DNA of 64,000 nucleotides from Candidatus Woesearchaeota archaeon (GTDB lineage Archaea > Nanobdellota > Nanobdellia > Woesearchaeales > GW2011-AR9). The DNA lies in contig JACPNA010000042.1 of assembly GCA_016185725.1 (NCBI GenBank), forward strand, positions 1,681 to 65,680. The letters are read 5' to 3'. The translations under genes were made by a program, and so were the position numbers. This document shows positions 4,026 to 33,302 of the stretch, in pieces (the stretch's first letter is position 1; each line of letters begins with the position of its first letter). The notes below the pieces were generated by a model. The model worked only from the letters and a program-made list of their open reading frames with translations. It had not been told where the DNA came from and did not search any database.

Positions 4026-5741
4026 ATGAGTAAACTTTCATCGACAGATATTCAAAAAACAACAAAGTTGCTTGTTACTGGTGGTTGTGGGTTCATAGGT
4101 TCAAATTTTATAAGATATATTCTAGATAAATATCCTAATTGTGAAGTAATAAATATAGATAAATTATCTTATGGTGGTAATTTAGATAATCTTCGAGATA
4201 TAGAAACAAATCCGCATTACAAATTTATTAAAGGTGACATTTGTGACCAAAAATTAGTTGATGAAACAGTAAAAGAGATAGATGGAATAATTCATTTCGC
4301 CGCAGAAACACATGTAGATAGATCCATCCAAAGTTCAACTGATTTTATCAAAAGTAATGTAATAGGAACACAAGTATTACTAGAATCAGCTACAAAAAAC
4401 GGATTAAAAAGATTTCATTATATCTCTACTGATGAAGTATTTGGAGCATTAGGAGAAGAAGGAAAATTTAATGAAAAAAGTCCGCATGATCCTAAGAATC
4501 CTTATGCTGCAAGCAAGGCTTCTGCTGAACATCTAGTCCGTTCTTTTTTTCACACTCATCAATTGCCCATTACTATTTCTAATTGTTCTAACAATTATGG
4601 ACCCTATCAATACCCCGAAAAATTCATTCCGCTCTTTTTAACAAACTTAATAGAAAGTAAAAAAGTACCGGTTTATGGTAGTGGACTTAACGTAAGGGAT
4701 TGGATTCATGTAATAGATCATTGCCGAGCTATTGATTTAATTTATCATCAAGGAAAAATTGGTGAAAATTATTGTATTTGTACCAACGACGAAAAAAGAA
4801 ACATAGACTTAACTAAAGAGATATTGTCAGAATTTGGATTTGGAGAAGAGAAAATACATTTTGTTGTTGATAGAAAAGGACACGACTTTAGATATGCTAT
4901 GGATAATTCCAAAATAAAAGAATTGGGGTGGACACAAAGTATAGAATTAAAAAATGGTTTAAAAGATACGATTCAGTGGTACAAACAGAATGAATGGTGG
5001 TGGAAAAAACTCAAAGAAAATAAGGTAAAGGGAATAATACTAGCAGGAGGAACAGGAAGTAGATTACTTCCCTTAACAAAAGTTACAAATAAGCATTTAT
5101 TGCCTATCTATGATAAACCTATGATTTTTTATCCATTAGAAACGCTAAAAAAAGCGGGAATTACTGATATTATAATTGTCTGTGGGACGGAAAGTGTAGG
5201 TGACTTCCTAAAATTATTGGGTAGTGGAAAAGAATATGGAGTTAACTTAACATATCGAGTACAAGACGGCTCGGGAGGAATAGCACAAGCAGCTAGTTTA
5301 GCTAAAACTTTCGTTGGAAAAAGCAAATGTGTGATGATTTTGGGGGACAATATTTTTGAAGAAGATATTACTCCTTACGTTGATGCATTTGAAAAACAAA
5401 GAAAAGGAGCGAGAATTCTTCTTAAAAAAGTTGGAGAAAAAGAAGCAAAAAGATTTGGCGTTGCCATAGTTGAAGGAAAAAAAGTAACTTATGTTGAAGA
5501 AAAACCAGAGATTCCTAAATCTAACTTAGCAATGACTGGATTATATATGTTTGATGACGAAATATTTGATATTATCAGTCGCTTAAAACCTTCAAAAAGA
5601 GAGGAACTAGAAATAACCGACGCATTAGATGCTTATGTGAAAAAAGGAGAATTAGAATATGATATAATCACTGGATTTTGGTCAGATGCTGGTACATTTG
5701 AATCATTGCACAACTCTTCACTATTCATTAAAAAAACATAA
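4026..5741 (+). CDS. Bifunctional fusion protein. The N-terminal part is a dTDP-glucose 4,6-dehydratase (RmlB-like) and the C-terminal part is a glucose-1-phosphate thymidylyltransferase (RmlA-like).
   Basis: Residues 1-~330 contain LLVTGGCGFIGSNFIRYIL, YAASKASAEHL (YxxxK) and the HFAAETHVDRS motif of RmlB. Residues ~335-571 contain KGIILAGGTGSRLLPLTKVTNKHLLPIYDKPMIFYPLETL, the RmlA sugar-nucleotidyltransferase signature. The whole is a single uninterrupted 571-aa ORF. Confidence 0.8.
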   Translation: MSKLSSTDIQKTTKLLVTGGCGFIGSNFIRYILDKYPNCEVINIDKLSYGGNLDNLRDIETNPHYKFIKGDICDQKLVDETVKEIDGIIHFAAETHVDRSIQSSTDFIKSNVIGTQVLLESATKNGLKRFHYISTDEVFGALGEEGKFNEKSPHDPKNPYAASKASAEHLVRSFFHTHQLPITISNCSNNYGPYQYPEKFIPLFLTNLIESKKVPVYGSGLNVRDWIHVIDHCRAIDLIYHQGKIGENYCICTNDEKRNIDLTKEILSEFGFGEEKIHFVVDRKGHDFRYAMDNSKIKELGWTQSIELKNGLKDTIQWYKQNEWWWKKLKENKVKGIILAGGTGSRLLPLTKVTNKHLLPIYDKPMIFYPLETLKKAGITDIIIVCGTESVGDFLKLLGSGKEYGVNLTYRVQDGSGGIAQAASLAKTFVGKSKCVMILGDNIFEEDITPYVDAFEKQRKGARILLKKVGEKEAKRFGVAIVEGKKVTYVEEKPEIPKSNLAMTGLYMFDDEIFDIISRLKPSKREELEITDALDAYVKKGELEYDIITGFWSDAGTFESLHNSSLFIKKT

Positions 5742-5803
5742 AGATTAAAATACTTTAATGACGGATAAAGTGATAAATTCATATTAAAAAAAAGTAAAAA
5801 AAC

Positions 5804-6910
5804 ATGGAATATAAAATAACTTTATTCAAAGTTCATATGCCAAAATCTGTAATCAAGCCTCTTAAGAATACATTACTTAGTGGTTTTATTGGTCAAGGTC
5901 CTAAAGTTGAAGAATTCGAAAATATTTTGGGAAACTATATTGGAAATAAATACGTTCTTACTTTAAATTCTTGTACTTCTGCTATTCAATTAGCTCTTCG
6001 CTTGTGTAATGTTGGTTTTGGAGATGAAGTTATTTCTACTGCCATGACCTGTACTGCCACAAATGAACCCATTTTAGCTCTGGATGCGAAAATAATTTGG
6101 GCAGACATAAATCCTACTACCGGAAACATTGATCCAAAATCAATCAAAAATAAAATTACCAATAAAACCAAAGCAATTATAGCTATGCATTGGGGAGGAT
6201 ACCCTCCTGATTTAAAAGAAATTAATATTATTGCTAAAGAATATGGAATTAAAGTTATTGAAGATGCTGCTCATGCTTTTGGAGCAGAATACCAAGGACA
6301 AAAAATAGGTAATCATTCTGATTTTGTTTGTTTTTCATTTCAAGCAATAAAACACATTAATACTGTAGATGGAGGAGCATTGTTCTGTAAATCAGAAGAG
6401 GATTATAAAAGAGGTAAACTCTTAAGATGGTATGGTATAGATAGAGAAGAAAAAGATCGCTCTGATCATCGATTAGAAAAAGATATTAAAGAATATGGGT
6501 ATAAATTTCATATGAATGATGTTTGTGCAACAATTGGAATAGAACAAATGAAATTTATTGATAAAATTTTAGAAAAAAATAGAGCAAATATCAATACATT
6601 AAACAATGCCTTTCAAAACAACAATAAAATTAAATTATTAAGTTATAAAAATGATAGATTATCTGCGTATTGGTTATATACTATTCTTATAAAAAATAAA
6701 GATGATTTTAAAACAAAAATGAACGAGAAAGGGATAATGGTTTCTCCTGTACACGCACGTAATGATTCCCATACTATGTTTCAAGAATTTAGATGTGAAC
6801 TTCCCAATGTAGATAAATTTTATTCTGAAATGATTTGTATCCCTTCGGGATGGTGGCTTAAAAATGAAGAGATAGAATATATTATTAAAACTATCAACGA
6901 AGGATGGTAA
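5804..6910 (+). CDS. DegT/DnrJ/EryC1/StrS-family PLP-dependent sugar aminotransferase
   Basis: It contains DAAHAFGAEY and SFQAIKHI (the Schiff-base Lys region) and is 368 aa long. Confidence 0.85.
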   Translation: MEYKITLFKVHMPKSVIKPLKNTLLSGFIGQGPKVEEFENILGNYIGNKYVLTLNSCTSAIQLALRLCNVGFGDEVISTAMTCTATNEPILALDAKIIWADINPTTGNIDPKSIKNKITNKTKAIIAMHWGGYPPDLKEINIIAKEYGIKVIEDAAHAFGAEYQGQKIGNHSDFVCFSFQAIKHINTVDGGALFCKSEEDYKRGKLLRWYGIDREEKDRSDHRLEKDIKEYGYKFHMNDVCATIGIEQMKFIDKILEKNRANINTLNNAFQNNNKIKLLSYKNDRLSAYWLYTILIKNKDDFKTKMNEKGIMVSPVHARNDSHTMFQEFRCELPNVDKFYSEMICIPSGWWLKNEEIEYIIKTINEGW

Positions 6911-6940: not shown

Positions 6941-8041
6941 ATGACTAAATTATTATGTATTACTTTATTTGGAGAAATTTGTGGGAGTAGTAGAGTAAGA
7001 GTATTACAATTTATTCCCTTTCTAGAAAAAAATAACATTCAATGTACTTCTAAAAAATTATTTTCAGATGAATATTTTAAGATAATATCTAATCAAAAAA
7101 AATGTAATTACTTAATCAAAAATCTATATACTATAAGTATAGCAATTATTATGTTATTAAAAAAAATAAAATACTCATTTATTGCAAAAAATTATGATGT
7201 AATTATTATCCAAAAAGATGCATTTCCCTTGATATTACAAAAAATAATGTATAAAAGAAACAAAAATATCATTTTTGAATTTGATGACACGATTTTTGAA
7301 CCAAGTCAATTTGCAAAAGGTTTAAATAAAATTTATGATAGGTATAGAATAAATATTTTGCCGCACTTTTTGGAAATAAGTAAACATATCATCGCTGAGA
7401 ACAACTATCTAGCAAATTACGCAAAACAATACAACAACAATGTGTCTATCATAACTGCACCAATAGACACTGAAAAATATTTTCCTAAAAAAAAAGATAA
7501 AAATAATGAAATAATTATAGGTTGGATAGGAAGTGCTTTTACAACCAATCAATTAAAATTATTAATTTCTCCTTTTAAAAAAATAAGTGAAAAATATCCA
7601 GATATATTAATAAAATTAATAGGAGCAGATAAAAATATAGATTTTGATGATATTCCTGTGAAATATGTTAAATGGTCTTTAGAAACAGAAGTAGAAGAAT
7701 TACAAAGTTTTGATATAGGTTTAATGCCCTTAGATAATGATCCTTTTAATAAAGGTAGATTAGGGTATAAAATGATACAGTATATGAGTATAGGAATACC
7801 AATAGTAGCTTCTGATATGGGATTAAATAAAGAGATAATTACAGAATATGAAAATGGTTTTTTAGCTTCAAATGATCAAGAATGGATAAACAAATTATCA
7901 TTACTTATAGAAAATAAAAATTTAAGAAAAAGAATGGGCAAAAGTGGGAGAAAAAAAGCTGTTGAAGAATATTCTCTAAAAATTGCAGAACAAAAAATCT
8001 TAAGTATAATCAAAACTATAGCAGAGAATAGTGCAAATTAG
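6941..8041 (+). CDS. GT-B glycosyltransferase (GT4/group 1)
   Basis: The C-terminal domain has the EYENGFL / E-x7-E-like motif and the length, 366 aa, fits this family. Confidence 0.65.
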   Translation: MTKLLCITLFGEICGSSRVRVLQFIPFLEKNNIQCTSKKLFSDEYFKIISNQKKCNYLIKNLYTISIAIIMLLKKIKYSFIAKNYDVIIIQKDAFPLILQKIMYKRNKNIIFEFDDTIFEPSQFAKGLNKIYDRYRINILPHFLEISKHIIAENNYLANYAKQYNNNVSIITAPIDTEKYFPKKKDKNNEIIIGWIGSAFTTNQLKLLISPFKKISEKYPDILIKLIGADKNIDFDDIPVKYVKWSLETEVEELQSFDIGLMPLDNDPFNKGRLGYKMIQYMSIGIPIVASDMGLNKEIITEYENGFLASNDQEWINKLSLLIENKNLRKRMGKSGRKKAVEEYSLKIAEQKILSIIKTIAENSAN

Positions 8042-8255: not shown

Positions 8256-9698
8256 ATGGAAAATTACGATGTGATACTAGTAAACCCAGATTTTTTGAGT
8301 ATTTACAATGCCAAATTTCCTCCTTTTGCAGCTATGTTTTTATCATATGCTCTTAAAAAAGCTGGTTACTCCATTAGAATATTTGATACACAATTCGAAA
8401 AAGAAGATAATCTCTATGAATGTATCAAAAATAATAAACCACTATGGGTAGGATTCTCAGTAATGACTGGTCCAACCATAGCTCGAACTTTAAAAATATG
8501 CCAGAAAATTAGAGAGATCTCTTCAGATATAAAAATTGTCTGGGGAGGTCCGCATCCAACTTTACTTCCTAAAGATACTCTTAAACATAAACTTATTGAT
8601 ATTGTAGTCATATCAGAAGGAGAAAAAACCGTTGTGGAATTAACAAAAACACTAAAGAATAATGAAAACTTGGATTTAGTCAATGGAATTGGATATAAAA
8701 AAAATGAAGAGATTATAATTACTAAACCCAGAGAATTTACAACTGATTGGGATAATGAAGTGGGATTAGATTGGGATAATGTCAAAATAAATAATTACAT
8801 TGATTCTCAAGGCAAATATAAAAAAATTTCTTTAATTACTAGTCGTGGCTGTCCTTTTAGATGTAAATTTTGTTGGAATATAATGGCAAATAATAGACGC
8901 TGGAGAGGCTGGTCTGCTGAAAAAGTTATTGAAGAGATACAGCGTTTGCTTCCTTATGGGGTGAATTATATAACTTTAGAAGATGATAATTTTGGAGTTG
9001 ATTTAAATAGAGCTAAAAAAATTTTAAAATTTATGAAAACACGAGATATTTTATGGTCTTTTGAGGGTGTTCGCGTAGGAAAACACATCACCATAGAATT
9101 AATCCAATTTTTCAAAGAAAACAATTGCCATCATCTTTCTTTCGGAGCAGAATGTGGAAACCAGAAAATGCTTGATTACATTGCCAAAGATATTACTGTT
9201 GAACAACTAATTGAATCTGCTAGATTAACCGGACAATATAAATTAGGTGTTAGATATAGTTGGATTATTGGTTTTCCAAAAGAAACGCACGCTGATAGAA
9301 TGGATCTTATATCATTAATCAATAAAATTACTGAATTAAATCCTAATTGCGCTCATTATATTGGTATTTATGGACCTCACCCTGGTTCAGAAATATTTCA
9401 AGAAACTATTGAAGCGGGTTGGATTCCTCCTAAAAATGTAGAAGGATGGTCATTATTTAGAGAAGAAGTAGATTTACCTTACTGCAAAAATATGTGGTAT
9501 TTGAGGAGCATAGCTTTAGCTTGTTTCTTTAAATTTGCAGTAGACTCTTCTTTAAGAGCACACTCAAAAACAAAAATTATTTATAGAATTCCTTTTAAAA
9601 TTTTGAAGTTTGTATCTAACATAAGATGGAAATATAGATTATTCCACTTTCCAATTGAATACAAAATACTAACATTAATAAAAAATAAAATTACTTGA
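8256..9698 (+). CDS. B12-binding domain radical SAM protein (class B rSAM)
   Basis: An N-terminal B12-binding-like domain is followed by the CPFRCKFC CxxxCxxC cluster motif. The protein is 480 aa. Confidence 0.7.
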   Translation: MENYDVILVNPDFLSIYNAKFPPFAAMFLSYALKKAGYSIRIFDTQFEKEDNLYECIKNNKPLWVGFSVMTGPTIARTLKICQKIREISSDIKIVWGGPHPTLLPKDTLKHKLIDIVVISEGEKTVVELTKTLKNNENLDLVNGIGYKKNEEIIITKPREFTTDWDNEVGLDWDNVKINNYIDSQGKYKKISLITSRGCPFRCKFCWNIMANNRRWRGWSAEKVIEEIQRLLPYGVNYITLEDDNFGVDLNRAKKILKFMKTRDILWSFEGVRVGKHITIELIQFFKENNCHHLSFGAECGNQKMLDYIAKDITVEQLIESARLTGQYKLGVRYSWIIGFPKETHADRMDLISLINKITELNPNCAHYIGIYGPHPGSEIFQETIEAGWIPPKNVEGWSLFREEVDLPYCKNMWYLRSIALACFFKFAVDSSLRAHSKTKIIYRIPFKILKFVSNIRWKYRLFHFPIEYKILTLIKNKIT

Positions 9699-9715
9699 TA
9701 AGAAAAATAAACAAA

Positions 9716-10417
9716 TCATTTTGTCGCAATAATTATCATCATTTTTGAGAGTATTAAATTATTAGTCCTGTTATATAATATTAAGATATATCTTAAGAAA
9801 AAATTACATAAATTCAATGTACTTTGATAAATATAACCTTTCAAACCAATATTAAAACTTTCTTCTTTAATTATAATTTTACTAAAACCAGATAAAGACA
9901 GAACTTGTCGAACACTTTCGTATGAGTAATAGGTAGTATACGTAAAATCATTACTCATTGATCTTAAACAAAAAGGATTTGTAATGGAAGGAGTTCTTAG
10001 CAATATAACCCCATTTGAATTTAAAGCCTGCTGAATAGCTTGGAGATATATAATTGTTTCCTCTTTGGGTATGTGAGCAATGACATCACTTAAAAATATT
10101 AAATCATAAGTATTCTTATGTTTTTTTAAAAAATCAAGTGTATTATATACTAGTTTTACTTTTGAAGTAACTTTTTCTTTAACAAAATCAACTTGTTGTT
10201 TTCCTATTTCAATACCAAAATAATTAGTATAACCTTCTTTCTCAAGATACGCCAGAAAAGAGCCTCGACCAAAACCAATTTCCAGTATCTTACTGCCTTT
10301 ATCCTTGGGTAAATACAGACCATAATTAATTTTAATGTATCTTAATTCTAAAGCTATTCGTGTTTCATCAAAAAAAGAATAGTAATCCTTTGTATATTGG
10401 TGCCAAATATCTGTCAT
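9716..10417 (-). CDS. Class I SAM-dependent methyltransferase
   Basis: It contains motif I ILEIGFGRGSF and has 233 aa. Confidence 0.65.
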   Translation of the reverse strand: MTDIWHQYTKDYYSFFDETRIALELRYIKINYGLYLPKDKGSKILEIGFGRGSFLAYLEKEGYTNYFGIEIGKQQVDFVKEKVTSKVKLVYNTLDFLKKHKNTYDLIFLSDVIAHIPKEETIIYLQAIQQALNSNGVILLRTPSITNPFCLRSMSNDFTYTTYYSYESVRQVLSLSGFSKIIIKEESFNIGLKGYIYQSTLNLCNFFLRYILILYNRTNNLILSKMMIIIATK

Positions 10418-10450
10418 AATCTATATTTATTTTATTAATGATATAAAAAA

Positions 10451-11425
10451 CTATTGTATTAAAGATCGACTCTTTTTAATTTTTAAAAAACCATATGCCC
10501 CTAATAAGAAAGCGTACATTAATCCAAAAACGTGAAAAGCTAATCCCGATACTATTGATTGTTCCTTTGCAAAACCAAAAAACAATAAAACTAGGACCCA
10601 AGTCCCTTCCGTTGTGCCAAACCCCATAAATCCCTGTATTGGTAATAAATAAGTCAACATAGTTAAGCCAGAACCCAATACAAAAACTGAAATAGGAATT
10701 TGAATAAAATAGCTAACAACTATAAAATCAGCCAACAAAAGAAATGACCACAACAATAAAGAAATGATAAACATTTGAAAAATTAATTTTTTAGATTTAA
10801 TCATATCAAAATGTTGTAGTGTTTCAATAATTTTTTCCATTATTTTTCTAAGAAATAATAAAGATTGTTTTCCCCGTATTCTTTTCATGAAATTTAGAAT
10901 AGAATTGCGTTTAAAAATTAAAAGATAGATAATTAATAGCAGTAGAAAGCAAAAAAATAAAGCAAAATAATTAAAAAAGATATTACTTTTAGGAGTAAAT
11001 AACAATGAAATAGAAAAGAATAATAAGATTATTACCATGTCAAAAATTCTCAAAATTCCTAATGTGAACAAGCCTTTAGTCCCCTCTATACCTTCATTTT
11101 TAAGCAAAAAGATATGCGAAAATTCTCCCATTCTCCACGGCAAAACATTATTTAAAAAATTATGGATACAAGTAATATCAAATATTTTATAATAAGATAT
11201 ACTCTTCTCAAATAAAATGTAGGTGCGCAATGATCTTAAAATATTTCCTATTAAATATAAAATAAAGGATATTAATATAACATGCCATTTTAATTGAGAA
11301 AACACTGAAAATAAAAAATCCACAGAAATGCTTTTAAATAGTACCCACAAAATAGCTAAAGTAATAAATAAAGTTGCCAAAAAAACAAAAACTTTATTTG
11401 ATCTATTTTTTTTTACTTCCGCCAT
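10451..11425 (-). CDS. Polytopic membrane protein, PF03706/UPF0104 flippase-like (LPG-synthase TM-domain family)
   Basis: It has about 8 TM helices and the motif LPWRMGEFS, which matches the P-G-x-x-G-x-x-E core of PF03706. Confidence 0.5.
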   Translation of the reverse strand: MAEVKKNRSNKVFVFLATLFITLAILWVLFKSISVDFLFSVFSQLKWHVILISFILYLIGNILRSLRTYILFEKSISYYKIFDITCIHNFLNNVLPWRMGEFSHIFLLKNEGIEGTKGLFTLGILRIFDMVIILLFFSISLLFTPKSNIFFNYFALFFCFLLLLIIYLLIFKRNSILNFMKRIRGKQSLLFLRKIMEKIIETLQHFDMIKSKKLIFQMFIISLLLWSFLLLADFIVVSYFIQIPISVFVLGSGLTMLTYLLPIQGFMGFGTTEGTWVLVLLFFGFAKEQSIVSGLAFHVFGLMYAFLLGAYGFLKIKKSRSLIQ

Positions 11426-11484
11426 TATTTAGTTAAATTGAACGCAAAGGTATATAAAGATTTAGTATTGTGGCCAAAAAGTGA

Positions 11485-12246
11485 ATGAATATGAAGAATG
11501 AATATTTTCCAGAAAAAACGGACTATCCGGATAATTTAGATATTATTAAGACAAAAAAATCAAAACAGTACTATAACGCCATAGAATCTTCTGCTTCAGC
11601 TTACTTTGATAGTCCCAAAACAGTAAAAAAACTATTTTTTAAACGCCTTACTGAAGTAATATCCCTTATTGGAGATAAAAAATATAACCTTACATTGGAC
11701 GCAGGAACAGGTATCGGCATTGTGCTTCCATATCTCAGTCAAAAAAGTCAAGAAATTATTGCTATTGATTATTCTGATATTGTTAATTATGCTGCTTTTA
11801 TGTGTGAAAAGAAAGGAATAAAAAATGTCTCTTTTCAAAAAGTAGATTTAAATAAATTTACTTCTAAAAACAAATTTGATTTAATACTTTGTCTTAGCGT
11901 ATTAGAACACATAGAAAATCCCGCAATCATTTTTGAAAAATTCAATGAAATTTTACATGAGCATGGAACTTTAATAGTGGGTTATCCTATCGAAACAAGT
12001 ATTGTCAAATTGTTTAGGCACTTAGAGTCTTATTTTAGAAAAAGCATTAACAAAAAAATCATAGAGGATAGTTACAAAAAAACGGAAGAATTCGCAGGTC
12101 ATATCTCTGACTGGAAGAAAATAGACAGAGCATTGATCAAGAACTTTAATATAGAAAAAAAAATAGATTTGAAATTCTGCTTCTTAAAATATTATGCAAT
12201 AAGAAAAGTGCACAAAAAAAAAGAAGATAACCTTCATGAAACTTAA
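11485..12246 (+). CDS. SAM-dependent methyltransferase (Methyltransf_11/23-like)
   Basis: It contains LDAGTGIGIV (motif I) and DLILCLSVLEHIENP (motif II/post II). Confidence 0.65.
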   Translation: MNMKNEYFPEKTDYPDNLDIIKTKKSKQYYNAIESSASAYFDSPKTVKKLFFKRLTEVISLIGDKKYNLTLDAGTGIGIVLPYLSQKSQEIIAIDYSDIVNYAAFMCEKKGIKNVSFQKVDLNKFTSKNKFDLILCLSVLEHIENPAIIFEKFNEILHEHGTLIVGYPIETSIVKLFRHLESYFRKSINKKIIEDSYKKTEEFAGHISDWKKIDRALIKNFNIEKKIDLKFCFLKYYAIRKVHKKKEDNLHET

Positions 12247-13894
12247 AAGCGAACAAATTTACATATTAATTATCTTTGGGATATTACTATTTTTAGGTTT
12301 TGCAAGTTTATTTAGCAATAAATTAACCCATGATTTCCCGCAAGGATTTAATGCTAACGACGCTTTTTACAAATACAACCGGGCCCATAATCTTGCAGAA
12401 ACTAGTAACTGGAAAAATATAGAAGAGTATACTGTCGAAGGAAGAAAAGATCTTCTTCAGGATGACAGCCCTCTAGCTTATGTACTCACAGTAGTTTTTT
12501 CAAGCAATTCAAAAATACCAGATTTTGATGCTTACCAATTGATAGGAATAATCTCTAAAATTTTAGCGGCGTTTATAATATATATGATTATTAGGAAATT
12601 CAATCCAAAAGTTGCCCTTATTTCATTGGTCATAGTGCCATTCATATTCATAAAAAACAATTTCATCTCTTTTTATTTTGGTTGGATTCCTATCACTCTA
12701 GCTGCTTCAATATTAATACTCCTCATCTGGCTCCTTTTAAACTTTGAATTGAAATCTGCATGGTTAATCTTAGGAATAATTATAAGTTCTGTCTTACTAA
12801 CACATCTTTCTGAATTTTATTACGCCATTCTTATTACAAATATAATCTTAATATATTTGCTAATAAAAAATAAAAACAGAAAAATCTTAACGAAAACAAG
12901 TTATGCTTTAGTGATATTTATCATTTTAACATTCTATTTTTTACCAATTTTTATCAATAATTCTCTTAGTTTAGCACAAGACAAATCTGTTGTTACTATT
13001 AGCGCACTCAAACAGCCATCCTTCCCCATAACCCTTCTTTCAGATTTTAGCTTCTTTCAATATTTCATTATTCTTGGTATCTTAATATCATTTTATTATT
13101 GCTACCAACACAAAGAAAAAATAATCTACTTTTTACCACTCTATATATTAATAATCATCTCTAACTTTCCTTTATTAGGCATGCACGATCGCTTTTATCA
13201 ATTACGCTATTTTTGGCCTATCATATTTATGATCTTCTTTGGATTAAGTATTTATTATATTATCAACTTAATTCTAAGACTAAAACCATTTAAAAATATA
13301 AATGATAATCTCCAAAACATTATTTACATCATCTTAACTTTATTATTTATTATATTATCTATTAACTTATATTACACGCCTCCCTCACCAAATAGCTTAG
13401 TAGTAAACAAAGATATGTGGGAGGGTATGCAATGGGTAAAAAATAATATTCCTGAAAACAAAACAATACTCATTGTTCATGGTGATAGTTATCAGCAACA
13501 TGGAATCTTCTTGATGTTTGGGAAAGTAATTCACCAGATAAAAGATGAAGATTATTATACCAAATTAAATTCTGGACAAATATCCAAAAATTATACTATT
13601 CGCAAATTTATTCACGGCTATGATTATTACAAAAGAACAGGATTTTTTACTTTTGAACCAGTTAAATTAGGTAAACCAGAATGGGAACAAACTCGTGGTT
13701 GGGAAGAAACCAATCTTTGCGATTTTGAATATTATGTAATCGACAAACCCAGTAGATTTCCGCAAGTAATAAATTACAACGCTAAAATAAGAGCAACATT
13801 ACTAAACAATAAAGATTTCACCGAAATATTTAGTAATGGATGGTATAGTATACTAAAAAATAATAACCCTGGAGCTGATTGCCTTGGAAAATAA
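12236..13894 (+). CDS. Large polytopic membrane protein with a C-terminal extracytoplasmic domain; putative GT-C-fold glycosyltransferase
   Basis: The 552-aa protein has more than 10 predicted TM helices followed by a soluble domain (MWEGMQWVKNNIPENK...). This domain is paralogous to the C-terminal region of the 14285-16273 protein. Confidence 0.4.
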   Translation: MKLKSEQIYILIIFGILLFLGFASLFSNKLTHDFPQGFNANDAFYKYNRAHNLAETSNWKNIEEYTVEGRKDLLQDDSPLAYVLTVVFSSNSKIPDFDAYQLIGIISKILAAFIIYMIIRKFNPKVALISLVIVPFIFIKNNFISFYFGWIPITLAASILILLIWLLLNFELKSAWLILGIIISSVLLTHLSEFYYAILITNIILIYLLIKNKNRKILTKTSYALVIFIILTFYFLPIFINNSLSLAQDKSVVTISALKQPSFPITLLSDFSFFQYFIILGILISFYYCYQHKEKIIYFLPLYILIIISNFPLLGMHDRFYQLRYFWPIIFMIFFGLSIYYIINLILRLKPFKNINDNLQNIIYIILTLLFIILSINLYYTPPSPNSLVVNKDMWEGMQWVKNNIPENKTILIVHGDSYQQHGIFLMFGKVIHQIKDEDYYTKLNSGQISKNYTIRKFIHGYDYYKRTGFFTFEPVKLGKPEWEQTRGWEETNLCDFEYYVIDKPSRFPQVINYNAKIRATLLNNKDFTEIFSNGWYSILKNNNPGADCLGK

Positions 13895-14284: not shown

Positions 14285-16273
14285 CTAAACCACCTTCACA
14301 ATAACTCCCCCATTATTCTGATAAACAACCACAAATTTATCTTTACTATTAAAATAATCTTGAAACTTTCCGATAATAATTTCTTGGGTTTTATTGCCGA
14401 AATCGTAATATCTAAAACTCATTGAATCTAAAATAAAATATTCATATTTTTCTTTTTTCAAGAAATTATAAACATCCAAGGAACTTTTATTGATAAATCC
14501 TTCTCTCAATTTGATATTCTGTTCACACCAATCACAATTATCCATATCTAAACCAATCACTTCATTATTCTGACTTCCAGAAAAAGACATGACTTTAGTA
14601 TTTTTAGGTAAACTATTCAACCATAAATACAATTGCACTTCCTCCATAGACGTCCAACTTGCTCCCGGTGGCCACATTGCCGTATTCACCGCATATTTTT
14701 GTTCCCCAGAAGTATACCATAATCCAATTAACAGAACCATAACCAACACTACCCTCACAACTTTAATTTTATCGGGAACTAATTTAAGTATAACAAAAAA
14801 TCCTTCCGCACAAATCAACGCTGTCGGAATTGCTAATAATAACCATGTCCTAAACCCAAATAACCCGGGAATATTAAATGTAGCGCTATTCACAATTAGA
14901 AAAGCAATCAATAACCACCCTAAAATTACCACGGGATAATAACTTTTATTTTTATAATATTTTTTTGCTAACATTACCACCATAAAGACCGAAATGATTA
15001 TTAAAATAGTGATAATTATACCCCAACCAATAGGATTATTAATCATATTACCTGATTTTGCTACAAAAAAATCATCAAAAGTATACGCTTTTGTCGCACT
15101 GCCTAAATTAGGCTTGAAATAATTCTGAACGAAACTAACTATCTTATACACTAAACTGGTATCCCGCGAAACTAGCCCCGGATCCAAATCGCTAATCCTC
15201 CCTGCTCTCTCTGTAAAAAAAGAACCAATCTTCATTGCCCACCACGATAACGATAAGGCTATTCCAATCAACAAAGAATAAAAATGTTCTAACGGCCATT
15301 TGCGTTCAAAAATCCATTTAATCACAACATAAACACCAAAAAACAGCAAAAATTTAATTGCATGCTCTGGATGAACTAAAAATATGCCAGCAATTGCTAA
15401 AGCAGAAACAAACATCCACTTCCTTGCCTCCTTTTTACATTCTTCCATTTCCTCATTGCCGCCACCGCTGCTGCCCTCACTATTAATACATTCCAAACAA
15501 TAAAACGCCACACAAACCAAAAATGGCAGCAAACTATGCGCCCAAATAAAATGACTCAGATAAGAAGGAATCACCGTTAAAATAAATGTAGCCAATAATG
15601 CCTTCTTTCGACTCTTCATAAATTTCGTTGCAAAAAAATAAAATACAATAATACTTAACGAAATAATTAACGCATTAAAAAATTTAAGCGTCCAATTCAC
15701 CGAATCATTAGTCTGATACAAAACCGCCATCAGAATGTCATACGCTGGAGGATAAGGATCAATATATCGAAACAAATCCTTACCCGTGTAAGGCTCATAT
15801 GCTGTTTTTTCCAGAGCAATATATCTCACACTTCTCGCATGCTCCCACGGATCATCATCTTCTAAATAAGGATAAGAAAAAGCTCCCGTGTGATACATAT
15901 AAAACGTAAACGCAAATAAAACAAAAACTCCTAATAAATAAAGATCTGCTTTATCTAATTTTATTTTGTTTATTTTGCTTATTTCATTTAAATCATCTTC
16001 AAAATTAAATTTATTTTTAATAAAATACCGGCCCAAACAATAAACAGGAACAGCTAAACTAACAACTAAAAAAATTCTCCAATCTAAGGGAATATGTGCT
16101 AAATTCAAAACTGTTCCCAATACCACAAAAACAGGCAATCCTATGCCCATTCTCATCAAATTTCTTTCCCAAAAATTACCCCACTTCTTTATAAATAATG
16201 TAGCTGTAAACCCCAATCCCCATAAATAAACAAAAAATAAAATTATTGTTGTAATATTCATATTTAACCCCAT
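14285..16273 (-). CDS. GT-C-fold-like polytopic membrane glycosyltransferase candidate (OST/ArnT/PMT-like architecture)
   Basis: The 662-aa protein has a many-TM N-terminal region with an acidic first-loop motif (YPYLEDDDPWEH, DxD-like) and a C-terminal soluble domain. No WWDYG motif is present. Confidence 0.45.
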   Translation of the reverse strand: MGLNMNITTIILFFVYLWGLGFTATLFIKKWGNFWERNLMRMGIGLPVFVVLGTVLNLAHIPLDWRIFLVVSLAVPVYCLGRYFIKNKFNFEDDLNEISKINKIKLDKADLYLLGVFVLFAFTFYMYHTGAFSYPYLEDDDPWEHARSVRYIALEKTAYEPYTGKDLFRYIDPYPPAYDILMAVLYQTNDSVNWTLKFFNALIISLSIIVFYFFATKFMKSRKKALLATFILTVIPSYLSHFIWAHSLLPFLVCVAFYCLECINSEGSSGGGNEEMEECKKEARKWMFVSALAIAGIFLVHPEHAIKFLLFFGVYVVIKWIFERKWPLEHFYSLLIGIALSLSWWAMKIGSFFTERAGRISDLDPGLVSRDTSLVYKIVSFVQNYFKPNLGSATKAYTFDDFFVAKSGNMINNPIGWGIIITILIIISVFMVVMLAKKYYKNKSYYPVVILGWLLIAFLIVNSATFNIPGLFGFRTWLLLAIPTALICAEGFFVILKLVPDKIKVVRVVLVMVLLIGLWYTSGEQKYAVNTAMWPPGASWTSMEEVQLYLWLNSLPKNTKVMSFSGSQNNEVIGLDMDNCDWCEQNIKLREGFINKSSLDVYNFLKKEKYEYFILDSMSFRYYDFGNKTQEIIIGKFQDYFNSKDKFVVVYQNNGGVIVKVV

Positions 16274-16304: not shown

Positions 16305-17018
16305 TTATTTATATTTTCCTAAAATAGTATTTACCCTTATCTTAAATAAATCATGCAACATTCGCCAAGAATCTTTTAAAAAATGAACCGTGCTACCCTT
16401 CTGATCAACCCAAGTTACTGGTACTTCCGCCACTTTATATCCATAATTCTTAGCTAAATAAAGCATTTCCACATCAAAAGCGAAACGGTCAATTGTCATT
16501 ATACTGAAAATCTTCTTGGCTGGTTCTGCTTTCATTAATTTAAACCCGCACTGTGTATCTTTAAATTTGAGACCAACAATAATATTAACGAAAAAAGGAA
16601 AAAATTGCCCTGCAAATTGTCTATATTTTGACTGTTTAACAACGATATTAGAACCCTTTAAATTTCGAGATGCAACAACGAAATCATAACCATCTAAAAT
16701 AGATTGATAGAGCGTATCCAATTCCTTCATAGGAGTAGCTAAATCACTATCCATAAATAATATAAAATCGCACTTTGCCCGTAGAACTCCTTTTTTTATA
16801 GAATAACCTTTTCCTTTATTAACACTATTTTTTAAGACAGTAATATATTTATTTTTTTGAATAGAAGAGAAAGTATTATCATTTGAACCATCATCAACAA
16901 TTATTATTTCATAAGAATTTATTTTTTCACTATTTTTTAAAAAATATATTACAGATTCTAATGTATTTTTAATTCTCTTTTCTTCATTATACGCCGGAAT
17001 GACAATTGATAGATTCAT
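16305..17018 (-). CDS. GT2 glycosyltransferase (dolichyl/polyprenyl-phosphate sugar synthase-like, soluble form)
   Basis: It contains MNLSIVIPAYNEEKRI...IIIVDDGSNDNT and DSDL (DxD), and has 237 aa. Confidence 0.8.
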   Translation of the reverse strand: MNLSIVIPAYNEEKRIKNTLESVIYFLKNSEKINSYEIIIVDDGSNDNTFSSIQKNKYITVLKNSVNKGKGYSIKKGVLRAKCDFILFMDSDLATPMKELDTLYQSILDGYDFVVASRNLKGSNIVVKQSKYRQFAGQFFPFFVNIIVGLKFKDTQCGFKLMKAEPAKKIFSIMTIDRFAFDVEMLYLAKNYGYKVAEVPVTWVDQKGSTVHFLKDSWRMLHDLFKIRVNTILGKYK

Positions 17019-17049: not shown

Positions 17050-18795
17050 CTACTCTTTATAGTAAATAGTCCAATAGGTCAAATTCTGGATAGAAAAACC
17101 ATTTTCTAAAAAATTATGCCCCCATCTATTATAAAACTCTGATTCATGATATCGATACACAACAACATAAATCGGAATATTTCTAACTCCTTTCAATTGT
17201 TCTGCCAAATTTTTAGCATTATAATCAACTGCTTCTAATGAATCTCTTCTATATTCAAACAAAGGAGCCTGTTGTTTAAAAACAAACGGATTATATCCTT
17301 GTTTTGCTCGCATAAATGTAAACATAACATAATCAGGATTATAATACCAAGACTTAGTTGGATTGGGAGTTTCCGAACTTCCTGTTCCTGGAGCATGCAA
17401 TAATATTTTAAAATCCTGCTTAGATTTCAAATAATCCAATAACTGATCATTCTTCTCTCCAGAATCTTGATATGTTTTATTATACATCCAGATATCAACT
17501 AAAAACAAAGAAACGACAAAAGTTAGTATCACCAAAAAATAAATTATTTTCTGGCGTTTCTTAAATGTTAAATCAACCAGAGAATATAATCCATATGCAG
17601 AAGCAATTATGACCAAAGGAAAAGCATGAACAATATACCTGATTTGATGATTAGACATTCTCAATGAAAAATATAAATAAATAGCTAAAAAAAACAAGGA
17701 GATAATAACCATCTGTTTTCTTGTTTCTTTATCCTCAATTTTACCTTTAATAAGCAAATAAATAACATAAAAGAAGAACAACGTAAAAAATAAAGTTCTT
17801 TGCAGATAACCATGAATCATATAGGTAAAATTAGAAAATAATGTGCCCCGCCCCATCCAAGGATAGTTTAAAGATAAATAATTTAGATCATGAGTGCAAT
17901 CTCTTATCTCTTGAGAAGAAGTTGTTATAATCCTCTCTAAAAAATGATTATCAAATAAATTATATTTTAGCCATTGATAACTAATTAGCAAAAACACCAA
18001 ATTTTGCAAAAAAGCAACAAATATAATTTGCAACGCCCCTGAATCACCCAATATTTTCCAATTTAGTTTATATCCCGCTTCTTTTTTATCCTCCCAATAT
18101 TTCGCCAAAATCAAATAAATAAAATAAATCACAAAAAAGATATCTATAAATAAAGCCCCCGAATATTGAATCAACGTAGCCAAAGTCAAAAACAATCCCC
18201 CTATTAAGATATTCCAACTAAAATTAACATAAAAATCCTTAAAAAACTTAATTCTATAATTTTTCTTGACCGCGCGTACAAATGTAAAATAATACCAAAA
18301 TAAAGTCATCATCGCAATTGGTATGGGTGCTAAAGCTTGAATAGCACTATACATATAAAATAAAGTTGACATTATTAAAATAATAGAAGAACTTAATGCT
18401 ACTATCTCTTTCTTTGTTGCGCGTAAAGCAATTATATATACTAAAATAGCGCTGATTATGGAACAAATCAACGCCATAAATCGTATCGCAAAAAAAGTTG
18501 GCCCAAAAATAAAATAAAAAAGAGCTCTGATAAGACCATCAATCGGCGGATCAATATTCGCAAACCAGCCCGCATTATATCCCATTTGTTGATATTTATT
18601 GACAAATTCATCAAAAGGAACATAACTATCAAATAGTATCGTTTTAATATAATCATGCCAAATCATTCCTCCTGCCGCATGTCTTGATTCGTCATAAGAT
18701 AATTGAATGGTATCAAAAGTTGCAGAAATCCAAAAACTATAAACTATTAAAAACAAAACCAGCACAATGACATAAGGAGATACCTTCAATTTCAT
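17050..18795 (-). CDS. GT-C-fold membrane glycosyltransferase candidate (ArnT/PMT, GT39/83-like)
   Basis: The 581-aa protein has about 12 TM helices and an N-terminal loop ...SYDESRHAAGGMIW typical of the ArnT/PMT family. It lies immediately downstream of a GT2 gene. Confidence 0.45.
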   Translation of the reverse strand: MKLKVSPYVIVLVLFLIVYSFWISATFDTIQLSYDESRHAAGGMIWHDYIKTILFDSYVPFDEFVNKYQQMGYNAGWFANIDPPIDGLIRALFYFIFGPTFFAIRFMALICSIISAILVYIIALRATKKEIVALSSSIILIMSTLFYMYSAIQALAPIPIAMMTLFWYYFTFVRAVKKNYRIKFFKDFYVNFSWNILIGGLFLTLATLIQYSGALFIDIFFVIYFIYLILAKYWEDKKEAGYKLNWKILGDSGALQIIFVAFLQNLVFLLISYQWLKYNLFDNHFLERIITTSSQEIRDCTHDLNYLSLNYPWMGRGTLFSNFTYMIHGYLQRTLFFTLFFFYVIYLLIKGKIEDKETRKQMVIISLFFLAIYLYFSLRMSNHQIRYIVHAFPLVIIASAYGLYSLVDLTFKKRQKIIYFLVILTFVVSLFLVDIWMYNKTYQDSGEKNDQLLDYLKSKQDFKILLHAPGTGSSETPNPTKSWYYNPDYVMFTFMRAKQGYNPFVFKQQAPLFEYRRDSLEAVDYNAKNLAEQLKGVRNIPIYVVVYRYHESEFYNRWGHNFLENGFSIQNLTYWTIYYKE

Positions 18796-18881: not shown

Positions 18882-19796
18882 ATGAAAGTCACAAAAATTC
18901 AGGAAAGTAACCCCCTTTTAAACATAATAATAAGTATTCCTGCTTACAACGAAGAAGCAACCATTGGTCAGGTTATCCAAGATATCAAAAACACCTTAAA
19001 ATTAACCGATTACAATTACAAAATTCTTGTTCTAAACGATGGCTCTACTGATAACACTGCTGAAATATCAAAAAAAAATGGTGCTATTGTGATATCAAAC
19101 AAACGAAACCTTGGCTTAGCCGAAACCTTTAAACGTGAAATGCAAGAATTCCTTACATTAAAAGCGGACATAATTGTTCATACCGATGCTGATGGACAGT
19201 ACCCTTCCCATTATATCCCTGAACTAATTAAGAAAATAGAAGAAGGCAATGACCTTGTTCTAGGTAGCCGTTTTGGCAAAGGTAAATATGAAGGTTCAAT
19301 ATTAAAAAAACTAGGCAATATAACTTTTGCCAAAGTATTTTCCAATCTACTAAAAACTAACATAACTGATACAACTACCGGCTTCCGTGCTTTCACTAAA
19401 GAAGTAGCTCAATTACCCTTAATTAACAATTTTACCTATACCCAAGAACAATTAATTCGTGCAGGGAAGGCAAAAATGCACATTGCTGAAATTCCTATTA
19501 CTACCCAAGAAACTCCTCGTCCCAGTCGTCTTTTCAAAAACCCCTTTGATTACGCTATTAAAGCCTGGATTAATATTTTTAGAATTTATCGTGACTTTGA
19601 ACCTCTCAAATTCTTTGGTAGAATTGGTGCATTATTTTTAGGAGTGGGATTTTTATTAGGAATTTGGATACTTTATTTATGGTTAACAACAGGTTCGGTT
19701 GGCGCTTTGCCAAGAGTAATTTTAAGCATGCTTTTAATAACAACCGGAATACAGATAATGCTCTTTGGCTTTTTAGCAGATATGAATAAAAAATGA
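18882..19796 (+). CDS. GT2 glycosyltransferase with C-terminal TM anchor (polyprenyl-phosphate sugar synthase-like)
   Basis: It contains IISIPAYNEEATI...LVLNDGSTDNT and TDADGQ, and has two C-terminal TM helices. Confidence 0.8.
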   Translation: MKVTKIQESNPLLNIIISIPAYNEEATIGQVIQDIKNTLKLTDYNYKILVLNDGSTDNTAEISKKNGAIVISNKRNLGLAETFKREMQEFLTLKADIIVHTDADGQYPSHYIPELIKKIEEGNDLVLGSRFGKGKYEGSILKKLGNITFAKVFSNLLKTNITDTTTGFRAFTKEVAQLPLINNFTYTQEQLIRAGKAKMHIAEIPITTQETPRPSRLFKNPFDYAIKAWINIFRIYRDFEPLKFFGRIGALFLGVGFLLGIWILYLWLTTGSVGALPRVILSMLLITTGIQIMLFGFLADMNKK

Positions 19797-20752
19797 ATTA
19801 TTCGAAAATAAAAAATTTATCGAAAAATATCCTAAAAATATCTGTTACTATTTTGATTATAATTTTTCTGATTTATAAAATAGGATTGAACAACCTAATT
19901 TCCACTTTATCTTCAGCCAACATATTAATTCTTTTAGTGATAATTCCGATAAAATTAATCTCTTTATTATTTACAACTTTAAACATAAAAATATTACTGG
20001 ATGTAATTAAAAAAAAAATAACTTTTTACAAATTATTTATTTATTCCAATCTTGCTTGGTCTATAGGCTTATTCCTTCCTGGTCGTCTAGGTGAATTTTC
20101 TCTTAGTCATTTTTTACAAGAAGAAGATTATACCTTAGGAGAAAGCGCTGCTGTTTCTTTATTAGATAAAATAAGTACATTTATTGTATTAGGCATATTA
20201 TCAATATTAGCCATACTCAAATATTTTGATACAATTTATGCCCTACAATTTTCTTTAATTCTTTTAACAATCTTAATCATCAGTTTATTTTTATTATCCA
20301 ACGAAAAAATAAGAAATATAATAAAGCAAAAAATCTTAGGAAAATATTCCTTATTATTTTATGGCTTTTATACTTCTTTTAAAGATATTCTAATAAATCA
20401 TAAAAAAATCTTTATATTAAACCTTCTTACCACATTAATCAAATGGAGTTTTAGTTTTCTTACTATTAAGATAATATTTATATCTTTAGGAACACCAACA
20501 CACTTTCTTGATATATCTTATATTACTTCCCTTTCCATGATTATTGCCTTAATTCCTATTAGCATAGGAGGGATTGGATTAAGAGAATCAACGGCAGTTT
20601 ATCTCTTTAATATTGTTTATATAAAACCAGAAATTACTTTAGCAGCACATTTAATTAATATTGCATTGAATTATATTATTGCTTTCATATTTATAACATT
20701 TAACTGGGACCTAATCAAAATCAACAAAGAAAAATATTCCAGCAAAAAATGA
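19793..20752 (+). CDS. PF03706/UPF0104 flippase-like membrane protein
   Basis: It overlaps the upstream GT2 stop by 4 nt and carries the motif LPGRLGEFS. It has 8 TM helices and is a paralog of the 10451-11425 protein. Confidence 0.5.
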   Translation: MNYSKIKNLSKNILKISVTILIIIFLIYKIGLNNLISTLSSANILILLVIIPIKLISLLFTTLNIKILLDVIKKKITFYKLFIYSNLAWSIGLFLPGRLGEFSLSHFLQEEDYTLGESAAVSLLDKISTFIVLGILSILAILKYFDTIYALQFSLILLTILIISLFLLSNEKIRNIIKQKILGKYSLLFYGFYTSFKDILINHKKIFILNLLTTLIKWSFSFLTIKIIFISLGTPTHFLDISYITSLSMIIALIPISIGGIGLRESTAVYLFNIVYIKPEITLAAHLINIALNYIIAFIFITFNWDLIKINKEKYSSKK

Positions 20753-30550: not shown

Positions 30551-31303
30551 CTATAATTCTTGATAAATAATACCTAACGCAAACCGTTCCGTTTCTTCAT
30601 AATCCAATGCTTTACCCATCGCTTTAACCTTATCACTAGCATCATAACTATCATCTAAATGATAGATTTTATCCTTAAAATAATCATGTTCTTTGCCAAA
30701 CGTAATACAACTTTGCATTATATCCACAAACGCAAATCCTTCGTATTCAATCGCTTTTTTCATTATCTCTACTAATCCCTTAGGATCGCCAGAATACGCC
30801 CGAGCGACAAATTTTGCTCCCGAAGCAATTGCTAATGCCAACGGATTAACTGGCATTTCTTCCGAACCACTCGGACTAGACTTACTCTTCGTTCCCTTCT
30901 TTGACGTCGGCGAATATTGTCCTGTCGTTAATCCAAACACTCCATTGTTATGTACAAAATAGGCAATGTTCACATTGCGTCTACACGCGTGAATAAAATG
31001 ATTTCCACCTTCACCATATCCATCTCCATCTCCGCCAAAAGCAATCACTTTAAGTTTAGAATTTGCTAATTTGACACCTTGAGCAACCGGCAAACTTCTC
31101 CCATGCAGCCCTACAAATCCATACGCTTTTATCCAATACGGCAATTTTGCAAAACAGCCAACTCCAGAGACTAACACTGTCTCCTCTTGTGGTACATTCA
31201 ACTCCATTAACGCCTTTTTAACACTTAAAATAATGCCAAAATTTCCGCAGGTTGGGCACCAATTAGGTTGTTCTTCTCTTTGAAAATCTTTAAGTGTTAA
31301 CAT
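30551..31303 (-). CDS. 2-oxoacid:ferredoxin oxidoreductase, beta (TPP-binding) subunit
   Basis: It has a TPP-binding GDGDGYGEGGNHF-type motif, conserved Cys near the N-terminus, and 250 aa. Confidence 0.8.
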   Translation of the reverse strand: MLTLKDFQREEQPNWCPTCGNFGIILSVKKALMELNVPQEETVLVSGVGCFAKLPYWIKAYGFVGLHGRSLPVAQGVKLANSKLKVIAFGGDGDGYGEGGNHFIHACRRNVNIAYFVHNNGVFGLTTGQYSPTSKKGTKSKSSPSGSEEMPVNPLALAIASGAKFVARAYSGDPKGLVEIMKKAIEYEGFAFVDIMQSCITFGKEHDYFKDKIYHLDDSYDASDKVKAMGKALDYEETERFALGIIYQEL

Positions 31304-33283: not shown

Positions 33284-33302
33284 AATAATGCTAATTCTCC
33301 CG

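Follow-up and report, generated by a model that had tools for sequence, protein, structure and literature searches.

In the hopanoid side-chain gene set hpnI-hpnJ-hpnK-hpnL, which belongs to the bacteriohopanetetrol cyclitol ether pathway, a glycosyltransferase (GT), a radical S-adenosylmethionine (SAM) enzyme with a B12 domain, a tailoring enzyme and a membrane protein of the PF03706 family are encoded side by side. HpnJ, the radical SAM member of this set, is thought not to methylate and has been proposed to contract the ring of glucosamine on the lipid. Other enzymes of this class are precedents for sugar C-methylation, among them GenK, GenD1 and MoeK5, the last of which acts on a lipid-linked sugar. 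C-methyltransferases are by far the most represented function among class-B (cobalamin-dependent) radical SAM enzymes and are present in every characterized group, with GenK, GenD1/GntE, MoeK5, Fms7 and Fom3 listed as Csp3 methyltransferases and OxsB, BchE and ThnL as class-B enzymes with other chemistry (PMC12931638, a 2026 review). Here we examine a class-B radical SAM protein encoded in a stretch of 64,000 nucleotides (nt) from a Candidatus Woesearchaeota archaeon (assembly GCA_016185725.1, contig JACPNA010000042.1, positions 1,681 to 65,680). This whole stretch is referred to as the window, and all positions below are counted from its first letter. We report that relatives of this protein recur beside the same kinds of glycan-assembly gene in eleven lineages, and that its substrate is very probably a glycan or glycolipid intermediate.

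A preliminary description, made by reading the DNA without database searches, had placed in a glycan island of an AT-rich archaeon a class-B radical SAM protein with the motif CPFRCKFC, two class-I methyltransferases and a PF03706 flippase-like protein, and had proposed that the radical SAM enzyme makes C-methyl or other unusually methylated sugars for the surface glycan, a reaction for which the archaeon would have to import cobalamin. Open reading frames, Pfam matches and the motif itself put all four proteins where they had been placed, and the sub-cluster is indeed embedded in a glycan island that spans position 1 to about 30.5 kb. The window has a GC content of 26–38% and carries archaeal markers (Nop56/58, fibrillarin, RFC and SecY), and the radical SAM protein and a GT-C-like protein encoded downstream are each 100% identical to NCBI proteins from 'Candidatus Woesearchaeota archaeon'.

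The radical SAM protein and its recurring neighbours

The radical SAM protein (Table 1) matches the B12-binding family PF02310 over residues 20–129 (E 6.5e-20; 71.6 bits, with a gathering score of 32.1), a near-full-length match that covers profile positions 11–120 of 121, and the Radical_SAM family PF04055 over residues 194–355 (E 7.8e-19). Read directly from the DNA, positions 8838–8885 translate as TSRGCPFRCKFCWNIM, which places CPFRCKFC at nt 8850–8873 and gives the cluster motif C199-x3-C203-x2-C206 (C199-P-F-R-C203-K-F-C206). All three cysteines are invariant across 37 homologues, as are G297, E299 and G301, which we take to be a GGE-like SAM-binding motif; the N-terminal domain has a conserved GGPHPT loop. 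An AlphaFold2 model of the protein is confident (predicted local distance difference test (pLDDT) 93.3; predicted template-modelling score (pTM) 0.91), with strands that alternate with helices over residues 6–155 (pLDDT >88), as in a Rossmann-like B12 domain. When this model was compared with the PDB by Foldseek, the best matches included MgmA (4.6e-22), TsrM (3.8e-21), OxsB (3e-19), TokK (2.5e-17) and CysS (1.1e-16), with query-normalized TM-scores of 0.59–0.67, and AprD4 was also among the top matches. The nearest solved folds therefore mix methylases (MgmA, TsrM, TokK and CysS) and non-methylases (OxsB and AprD4). The cobalamin-binding fold on which the preliminary description depended is supported by the PF02310 match and by superposition of the model on cobalamin-bound MgmA, TsrM, OxsB and TokK. 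By domain architecture and predicted fold, 8256–9698 encodes a two-domain class-B radical SAM protein that is predicted to bind cobalamin. In class-B enzymes cobalamin is held base-off and no DxHxxG motif is needed (PMC12931638), so binding is not a matter that a sequence motif can decide.

Beyond the two domains lies a C-terminal tail (residues 395–480; nt 9438–9698) with a net charge of +10, 16 aromatic residues in 86 and conserved R457, W458, F463 and P466. The tail is specific to the family, because alignments to HpnJ, BchE and a MoeK5-like protein (see below) all end near residue 390. Its basic, aromatic composition fits, if weakly, an enzyme that works at the membrane interface.

To describe the genomic setting, we counted eleven lineages: the window, L001, L004, L006, L008, L009, L010, L075, L180, L182 and the P0028 locus, in which the radical SAM relatives are 36–81% identical to the window protein. 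A GT4 or GT2 glycosyltransferase lies beside or close to the radical SAM gene in all eleven, a PF03706 protein within 8 kb in eight, a class-I methyltransferase nearby in seven, and DegT and/or sugar nucleotidyltransferase genes in seven. Most of the eleven also have a large polytopic protein, often with a PMT, PMT_2 or GT87 match. The most constant partner is the glycosyltransferase directly upstream, which is of the GT4 type in the window and is replaced by a GT2 in some lineages. Single-sequence phmmer overlooked the more divergent PF03706 proteins, such as that of L004, and iterated hidden Markov models were used instead for the neighbourhoods. With these, the twelve fetched loci in which the radical SAM protein scores at least 300 bits have a PF03706 protein within 8 kb in ten cases and a GT-C-like protein in eleven. 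Among remoter homologues (n = 159) the two were found nearby in 12 and 31 cases, respectively, which is far above what chance would give if each genome had only one or a few genes of either kind. We also counted the genes directly next to about 70 homologues scoring at least 150 bits. These 130 neighbours included 14 GT4-type and 13 GT2 glycosyltransferases, about 9 class-I methyltransferases and 3 PMT_2 proteins, together with another 26 radical SAM proteins, of which 22 have a B12 domain. A second B12-type radical SAM gene is present in about 45% of the remoter loci (L013–L172), often in tandem within 100 bp; the window has only one.

Chance adjacency of the radical SAM gene and glycan genes is ruled out by this recurrence in eleven lineages. 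The recurring synteny instead makes the protein part of a module for a lipid-linked glycan or a glycolipid. Paralogues elsewhere in the Woesearchaeota give a useful comparison. Two B12-type radical SAM proteins that are 34–35% identical to the window protein (L011:8001-9512 and L181:7001-8515) are encoded beside a TYW1-like radical SAM protein (Radical_SAM plus Wyosine_form), CysRS, TBP, an intein-containing MCM, LeuRS and aRF1, and no glycan genes were found beside them in either locus. This paralogous clade may have a role in RNA or tRNA modification. Its housekeeping setting indicates that the glycan context is specific to the window's clade and is not a genome-wide property, and the difference between the two neighbourhoods shows that the method can tell a glycan context from others.

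Remote relatives in cultured bacteria are likewise found in glycan loci. On a plasmid of Solidesulfovibrio carbinolicus, the gene order is epimerase, acyltransferase, glycosyltransferase and radical SAM protein. On a 27-kb plasmid of the obligate intracellular pathogen Lawsonia intracellularis (locus L174; NZ_CP107057.1, 2455-14756), the order is GT2, GalE, GT2, two DUF2304 proteins, an SIS protein, a hypothetical protein, the B12-type radical SAM protein, two methyltransferases, a second radical SAM protein, four methyltransferases and GT2. With six class-I methyltransferases, three GT2 proteins, GalE, two DUF2304 proteins and two radical SAM proteins, one of them the remote B12-type relative, the gene content of the Lawsonia locus suggests a heavily methylated surface glycan.

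We conclude that the radical SAM protein very probably tailors a glycan or glycolipid intermediate. The preliminary description had reached a glycan role from the position of the gene in one genome; synteny across eleven lineages now gives that role broader support. The class-B fold, taken with the partnership of glycosyltransferase, PF03706 and GT-C-like proteins, points to a substrate that would be a sugar on, or bound for, a lipid carrier on the cytoplasmic side of the membrane.

Family placement and the candidate reactions

The family is large and sparsely populated close to the window protein. A homologue search returned 804 relatives among the scored candidates. An exhaustive HMMER search of representatives of 50%-identity clusters gave 42,685 matches at E<=1e-3, 24,233 at E<=1e-10 and 3,407 at E<=1e-30, of which only about a dozen representatives reached 300 bits or more. 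Contig scans of genomes and metagenomes yielded, among the matches listed, mostly relatives of 25–35% identity and not orthologues.

Named profiles score far below their cut-offs: BchE at 156.3 bits (cut-off 481.35), HpnJ (TIGR03471) at 135.1 (577.6), PhpK at 125 (600), ApyD at 117 (750) and MgmA at 81 (360). The order of the best profiles is the same in all 37 clade members, with best E values of 1.4e-55 for BchE and 1.7e-54 for HpnJ. For direct comparison, we took reference sequences from annotated plasmids, namely HpnJ from Mycetohabitans (L177) and BchE from a member of the Rhodobacteraceae (L178). The third reference is a probable MoeK5 orthologue (L176:8806-10314) from a moenomycin-like cluster on the megaplasmid of S. 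clavuligerus. Pfam matches at this locus read epimerase, AsnB-type, AsnB-like and B12-type radical SAM, with an unannotated open reading frame between the two AsnB-type genes; this arrangement resembles that of the moe genes and makes the protein probably the MoeK5 orthologue. In BLASTP, the window protein scored 88 bits against HpnJ (26% over 332 residues), 107 bits against the MoeK5-like protein (25% over 380 residues) and 108 bits against BchE (25% over 395 residues, covering both domains at residues 7–386). A rough neighbour-joining tree (45 sequences, 476 columns, 200 bootstraps and these three references only) separated HpnJ, BchE, the MoeK5-like protein and the Lawsonia and Solidesulfovibrio proteins from the window's clade and a broad uncharacterized family in every one of the 200 bootstraps. 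Support for the window's own 13-member clade was 62%. In this three-reference tree the protein groups neither with the probable sugar C-methylase nor with a non-methylase.

C-methylation is favoured mainly because it is the commonest class-B chemistry and has precedents on sugars, and we hold it as a tentative assignment, somewhat short of probable. Several observations weigh against it or against the scheme built around it. The protein meets no curated NCBIfam family, and its best named profiles belong to the non-methylating BchE and HpnJ. By BLASTP score it is equidistant from HpnJ, BchE and the probable MoeK5 sugar C-methylase, and it does not group with the last of these in the tree. Neither sequence nor fold can separate methylases from non-methylases, and a Rossmann-like N-terminal domain is no guarantee of cobalamin, which AprD4 and ArsL do not bind (PMC12931638). 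The 64-kb window contains no gene for cobalamin uptake or salvage and, in an Rfam scan of which the sole match was 5S rRNA, no cobalamin riboswitch. The class-I methyltransferases nearby are uninformative about the chemistry of the radical SAM protein itself, and the GT-C assignment of the downstream membrane protein is based on sub-threshold evidence. Of the proposal of a C-methylated surface sugar, the link to the glycan stands, and C-methylation itself is neither supported nor refuted by profiles, BLASTP or the tree. As for a grouping with non-methylating B12-type enzymes, BchE and HpnJ are the best profiles but fall far below their cut-offs, and the tree separates the protein from both.

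If the enzyme does C-methylate, the genes of the sub-cluster would fit the following order of events. RmlB and RmlA together with the DegT aminotransferase (4026–6910) predict a deoxythymidine diphosphate (dTDP)-amino-dideoxyhexose (an amino-6-deoxyhexose); judged by their families, they would make this dTDP-amino-6-deoxyhexose and likely supply the sugar substrate. The adjacent GT4 would load the sugar on a lipid acceptor or a lipid-linked glycan at the cytoplasmic face. The 5′-deoxyadenosyl radical of the radical SAM enzyme would then take a hydrogen from an unactivated sugar carbon, and a methyl group would most likely be delivered from methylcobalamin, giving a C-methyl-branched sugar. The two class-I methyltransferases, MT1 and MT2, could add N- or O-methyl groups. 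The PF03706 protein, by its family, would flip the lipid-linked product across the membrane, and the GT-C-like protein would move it from the lipid carrier to the final acceptor outside the cell.

The alternative that survives best is a ring contraction of the HpnJ/Cds type, which the comparable hpnI-hpnJ-hpnK-hpnL gene set makes a live rival and which we nevertheless judge unlikely. Here, the glycosyltransferase would attach an amino sugar to a membrane lipid and the radical SAM enzyme would abstract H-5; the pyranose would open and reclose between C1 and C5 to leave a cyclitol head group, like that of calditol or of bacteriohopanetetrol cyclitol ether, and the PF03706 protein would carry the cyclitol lipid to the outer leaflet. 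In all 37 clade members, HpnJ ranks second among the named profiles, and the free-amine amino sugar proposed as its substrate agrees with the amino sugar that DegT predicts here, no acetyltransferase gene being adjacent to that of DegT. However, the match of 135 bits falls well under the cut-off of 577.6, the BLASTP score is lower with HpnJ than with either of the other two references, and no bootstrap tree placed HpnJ with the window family. The window PF03706 protein has no BLASTP or profile similarity to HpnL, no HpnK-type deacetylase is present, and the downstream GT-C-like protein is better suited to glycan transfer than to a terminal lipid head group. By analogy with the hopanoid genes, the module as a whole could be a counterpart of HpnI, HpnJ and HpnL, in which a radical-rearranged sugar, whether carbocyclic or C-branched, would be made on a lipid carrier and then flipped, so that an episymbiotic archaeon would bear it on its cell surface; this analogy, too, we consider doubtful.

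A second possibility, to which we give a small probability, is other non-methylating radical chemistry on the sugar: an AprD4-like deoxygenation or dehydration, an epimerization, an oxidation or a C–C coupling, with cobalamin as an electron sink or with an N-terminal domain that does not bind it. The sugar 1,2-diol dehydratase AprD4 ranks high among both fold and sequence matches: of the proteins with solved structures, it is the second best when sequences are matched to the family profile (9.6e-30). Furthermore, OxsB, BchE and ThnL are precedents for class-B enzymes that do something other than methylate. The loci L180, L010 and P0028 have sulfotransferases, an ATP-grasp protein or a SPASM radical SAM protein in place of the methyltransferases, which suggests that the partnership of the enzyme is with the glycan and not with methylation. 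Yet the AprD4 match spans only the radical SAM core (residues 173–391), the N-terminal domain, with its conserved GGPHPT loop, matches PF02310 strongly, and non-methylating enzymes are a minority among characterized class-B proteins.

Least probable is that the enzyme acts on lipid, methylating or cyclizing a polyprenyl or dolichyl carrier or an archaeal isoprenoid lipid in the manner of HpnP/HpnR, GrsA/B or Gmm, with the glycosylation genes serving the same lipid; we regard this as improbable. Several class-B enzymes do modify isoprenoid lipids (PMC13459092). The HpnR and ladderane-lipid profiles give weak matches of 73–91 bits, and the basic hydrophobic tail and the linkage to a lipid-flippase-like protein point the same way. 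Set against these, the tightest partners of the radical SAM gene are glycosyltransferases and nucleoside diphosphate (NDP)-sugar enzymes and not lipid-synthesis genes, and the same family occurs in bacteria, whose lipids differ. To our knowledge, moreover, DPANN archaea are generally without lipid synthesis.

The glycan island and the rest of the window

The island that surrounds the sub-cluster encodes an RmlB/RmlA fusion, a DegT aminotransferase, one GT4, four GT2 and three GT-C-like proteins, two PF03706 proteins, two uridine diphosphate (UDP)-glucose dehydrogenases, NDP-sugar epimerases and dehydratases and a heparinase II/III-like protein. The features discussed here are collected in Table 1.

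Table 1 Features of the glycan island and its right-hand flank, in window positions
Feature	Positions	Strand	Matches and remarks
RmlB–RmlA fusion (dTDP-glucose 4,6-dehydratase and glucose-1-phosphate thymidylyltransferase)	4026–5741	+	TIGR01181, 452 bits (above cut-off 365); RmlA-type TIGR01207 and TIGR01208, ~231 bits each (under their cut-offs)
DegT/PseC-type aminotransferase	5804–6910	+	PF01041, 6.5e-91
GT4-type (GT-B fold) glycosyltransferase	6941–8041	+	PF00534, 5.1e-16; PF13692; directly upstream of the radical SAM gene
Class-B radical SAM protein, 480 aa	8256–9698	+	PF02310 and PF04055 (Pfam)
MT1, class-I SAM-dependent methyltransferase, 233 aa	9716–10417	-	Methyltransf_23, 2.3e-13; Methyltransf_25, 1.8e-10
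PF03706 (LPG_synthase_TM/flippase-like) stand-alone polytopic membrane protein, 324 aa	10451–11425	-	PF03706, 5.6e-30, 105.3 bits (gathering score 33.4), profile positions 3–302 of 302; TIGR00374 'flippase-like domain', 51 bits (cut-off 43.2)
MT2, class-I SAM-dependent methyltransferase, 253 aa	11485–12246	+	Methyltransf_31, 5.6e-16, and related families
Polytopic membrane protein, 552 aa, probable GT-C (GT39/PMT-like)	12236–13894	+	Weak PMT_2, E 1.4e-3, 19.3 bits (under gathering score 26.1)
Small conserved membrane protein, 131 aa	13884–14279	+	TTG start; overlaps the end of the GT-C-like gene
GT-C-like protein	14285–16273		
GT2	16305–17018		
GT-C-like protein	17050–18795		
GT2	18882–19796	+	
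Second PF03706 flippase-like gene	19793–20752	+	9.1e-34; overlaps the end of the preceding GT2 gene by 4 nt
Zn-dependent alcohol-dehydrogenase-like part fused to GFO/IDH/MocA oxidoreductase, 711 aa	20810–22945	-	TTG start
Heparinase II/III-like protein	22978–24870	+	PF07940, 1.8e-46; PF16889, 5.5e-28
Pyruvate:ferredoxin oxidoreductase genes	30551–33018		
5S rRNA	33173–33285	-	62 bits

The RmlB–RmlA protein is a single polypeptide with the dehydratase at its N terminus and the thymidylyltransferase at its C terminus, an order in which the second step of the pathway is encoded ahead of the first; the fusion is kept in L001.

Of the two methyltransferases, MT1 matches Methyltransf_23, Methyltransf_25, Methyltransf_12 and Methyltransf_11, all above their gathering scores, and has a motif I of the GxGxG type (ILEIGFGRG). 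Its nearest solved relatives, all weak matches, are an uncharacterized archaeal methyltransferase (3dli) and phosphoethanolamine N-methyltransferases, and an orthologue stands at the same position in L001–L003. The gene for MT2, a protein with the motif I LDAGTGIG, diverges from the PF03706 gene, and its last 11 nt are also the first 11 nt of the GT-C-like gene. The nearest solved relatives of MT2 are various N-methyltransferases, again as weak matches. For neither protein did PDB matches at E<0.01 include a sugar N,N-dimethyltransferase of the TylM1/DesVI type.

The polytopic protein that follows is probably a GT-C glycosyltransferase. A protein identical to it is labelled 'glycosyltransferase family 39 protein' at NCBI, and its syntenic counterparts in other lineages match PMT, PMT_2 or GT87. 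Its AlphaFold2 model, built from 6 homologues, is too poor to use (pLDDT 48; pTM 0.43). The small membrane protein encoded next has no Pfam match; a counterpart lies downstream of the GT-C-like gene in L001–L003 (129 bits). Further along, the succession of GT2, GT-C-like and second PF03706 genes gives the impression that the island holds several parallel sets of glycosyltransferase, flippase and GT-C protein. The heparinase II/III-like protein, by its Pfam matches, may be a polysaccharide-modifying enzyme of the C5-epimerase or lyase type.

GC content is 26–31% over 1–14 kb and 33–38% past about 26 kb, and GC skew is positive only at 4–10 kb, after which it runs from -0.2 to -0.4 whichever strand codes. 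The island may be compositionally foreign, or there may be a switch in strand asymmetry near 9–10 kb. A lone 5S rRNA gene stands beside the pyruvate:ferredoxin oxidoreductase genes, and the Rfam scan found no other rRNA in the 64-kb window. Promoter and terminator counts were at chance level, in a type of scan that is not suited to an archaeon.

Comparison with known systems

The class of the enzyme is known, and generic annotations of these genes are already in public records. In the literature we found no characterized B12-type radical SAM protein in O-antigen, capsule, S-layer or DPANN glycan loci, and no earlier description of the set formed by a glycosyltransferase, a class-B radical SAM protein, a PF03706 protein and a GT-C-like protein. 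Nor did we find one that ties a very large uncharacterized class-B family to glycan loci. The module is shared among DPANN archaea and also stands beside remoter relatives in the Candidate Phyla Radiation and other bacteria. Class-B radical SAM enzymes are numerous and for the most part uncharacterized, and one very large uncharacterized branch of them is thereby tied to glycan or glycolipid assembly with a specific, conserved set of partners (glycosyltransferase, PF03706 and GT-C-like proteins, in many cases joined by DegT and methyltransferases), which defines a testable cassette for C-methyl branching versus ring contraction. Were the module a counterpart of HpnI, HpnJ and HpnL, this would suggest a function for a family of about 3,400 clusters at 50% identity (E<=1e-30). 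It would also mean a cobalamin-dependent step in the surface glycan of organisms that must scavenge B12, and a DPANN archaeon of reduced genome that depends metabolically on its host or community for cobalamin.

Among described class-B enzymes, BchE (anaerobic Mg-protoporphyrin IX monomethyl ester cyclase; TIGR02026) is the best-scoring named profile, and its alignment extends over both the B12 and the radical SAM domains. The window, however, offers no bacteriochlorophyll context, the C-terminal region differs and the tree separates the families; the likeness is probably no more than that of a generic scaffold which all class-B enzymes have in common. The sugar C-methylating enzymes GenK, GenD1/GntE, MoeK5, Fms7 and Fom3 have the same two-domain architecture as the window protein and, like it, sit among sugar-modifying genes. 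They belong to antibiotic pathways of actinomycetes, whereas the window gene lies in a locus for a cell-surface glycan.

A second likeness is to the three-component polyprenyl-phosphate systems (a GT2 synthase, a flippase and a GT-C transferase, as in GtrA/B/C, ArnC/E-F/T and CsbB/GtcA/YfhO), whose logic recurs in the window as a cytoplasmic glycosyltransferase, a small flippase-like protein and a GT-C-like transferase. The flippase-like protein of the window is of the PF03706 family and not GtrA- or EmrE-like, the glycosyltransferase next to the radical SAM gene is a GT4, and the set includes a radical SAM enzyme. We know of no radical SAM enzyme described in such a three-component system.

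The likeness to the hopanoid cluster (L177) is one of gene sets only: in both, the genes for a glycosyltransferase and for a radical SAM protein with a B12 domain stand together with those for a tailoring enzyme (in the window, a methyltransferase) and a PF03706 protein. The 'lysylphosphatidylglycerol synthase domain' protein of the hopanoid cluster is HpnL, a member of PF03706/IPR022791 (bioRxiv 10.1101/2025.07.29.667474); given the absence of BLASTP similarity between HpnL and the window protein, the parallel holds at the level of the Pfam/InterPro family only. The window glycosyltransferase is a GT4 and not HpnI, methyltransferases stand where the HpnK deacetylase does, a GT-C-like protein is added and the host is an archaeon. 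No hopanoid genes (shc, hpnH or hpnK) were found in the window, nor among the genes tabulated with Pfam for nine related loci. The two also have, or are suggested to have, the same kind of substrate, a sugar linked to a lipid of the membrane.

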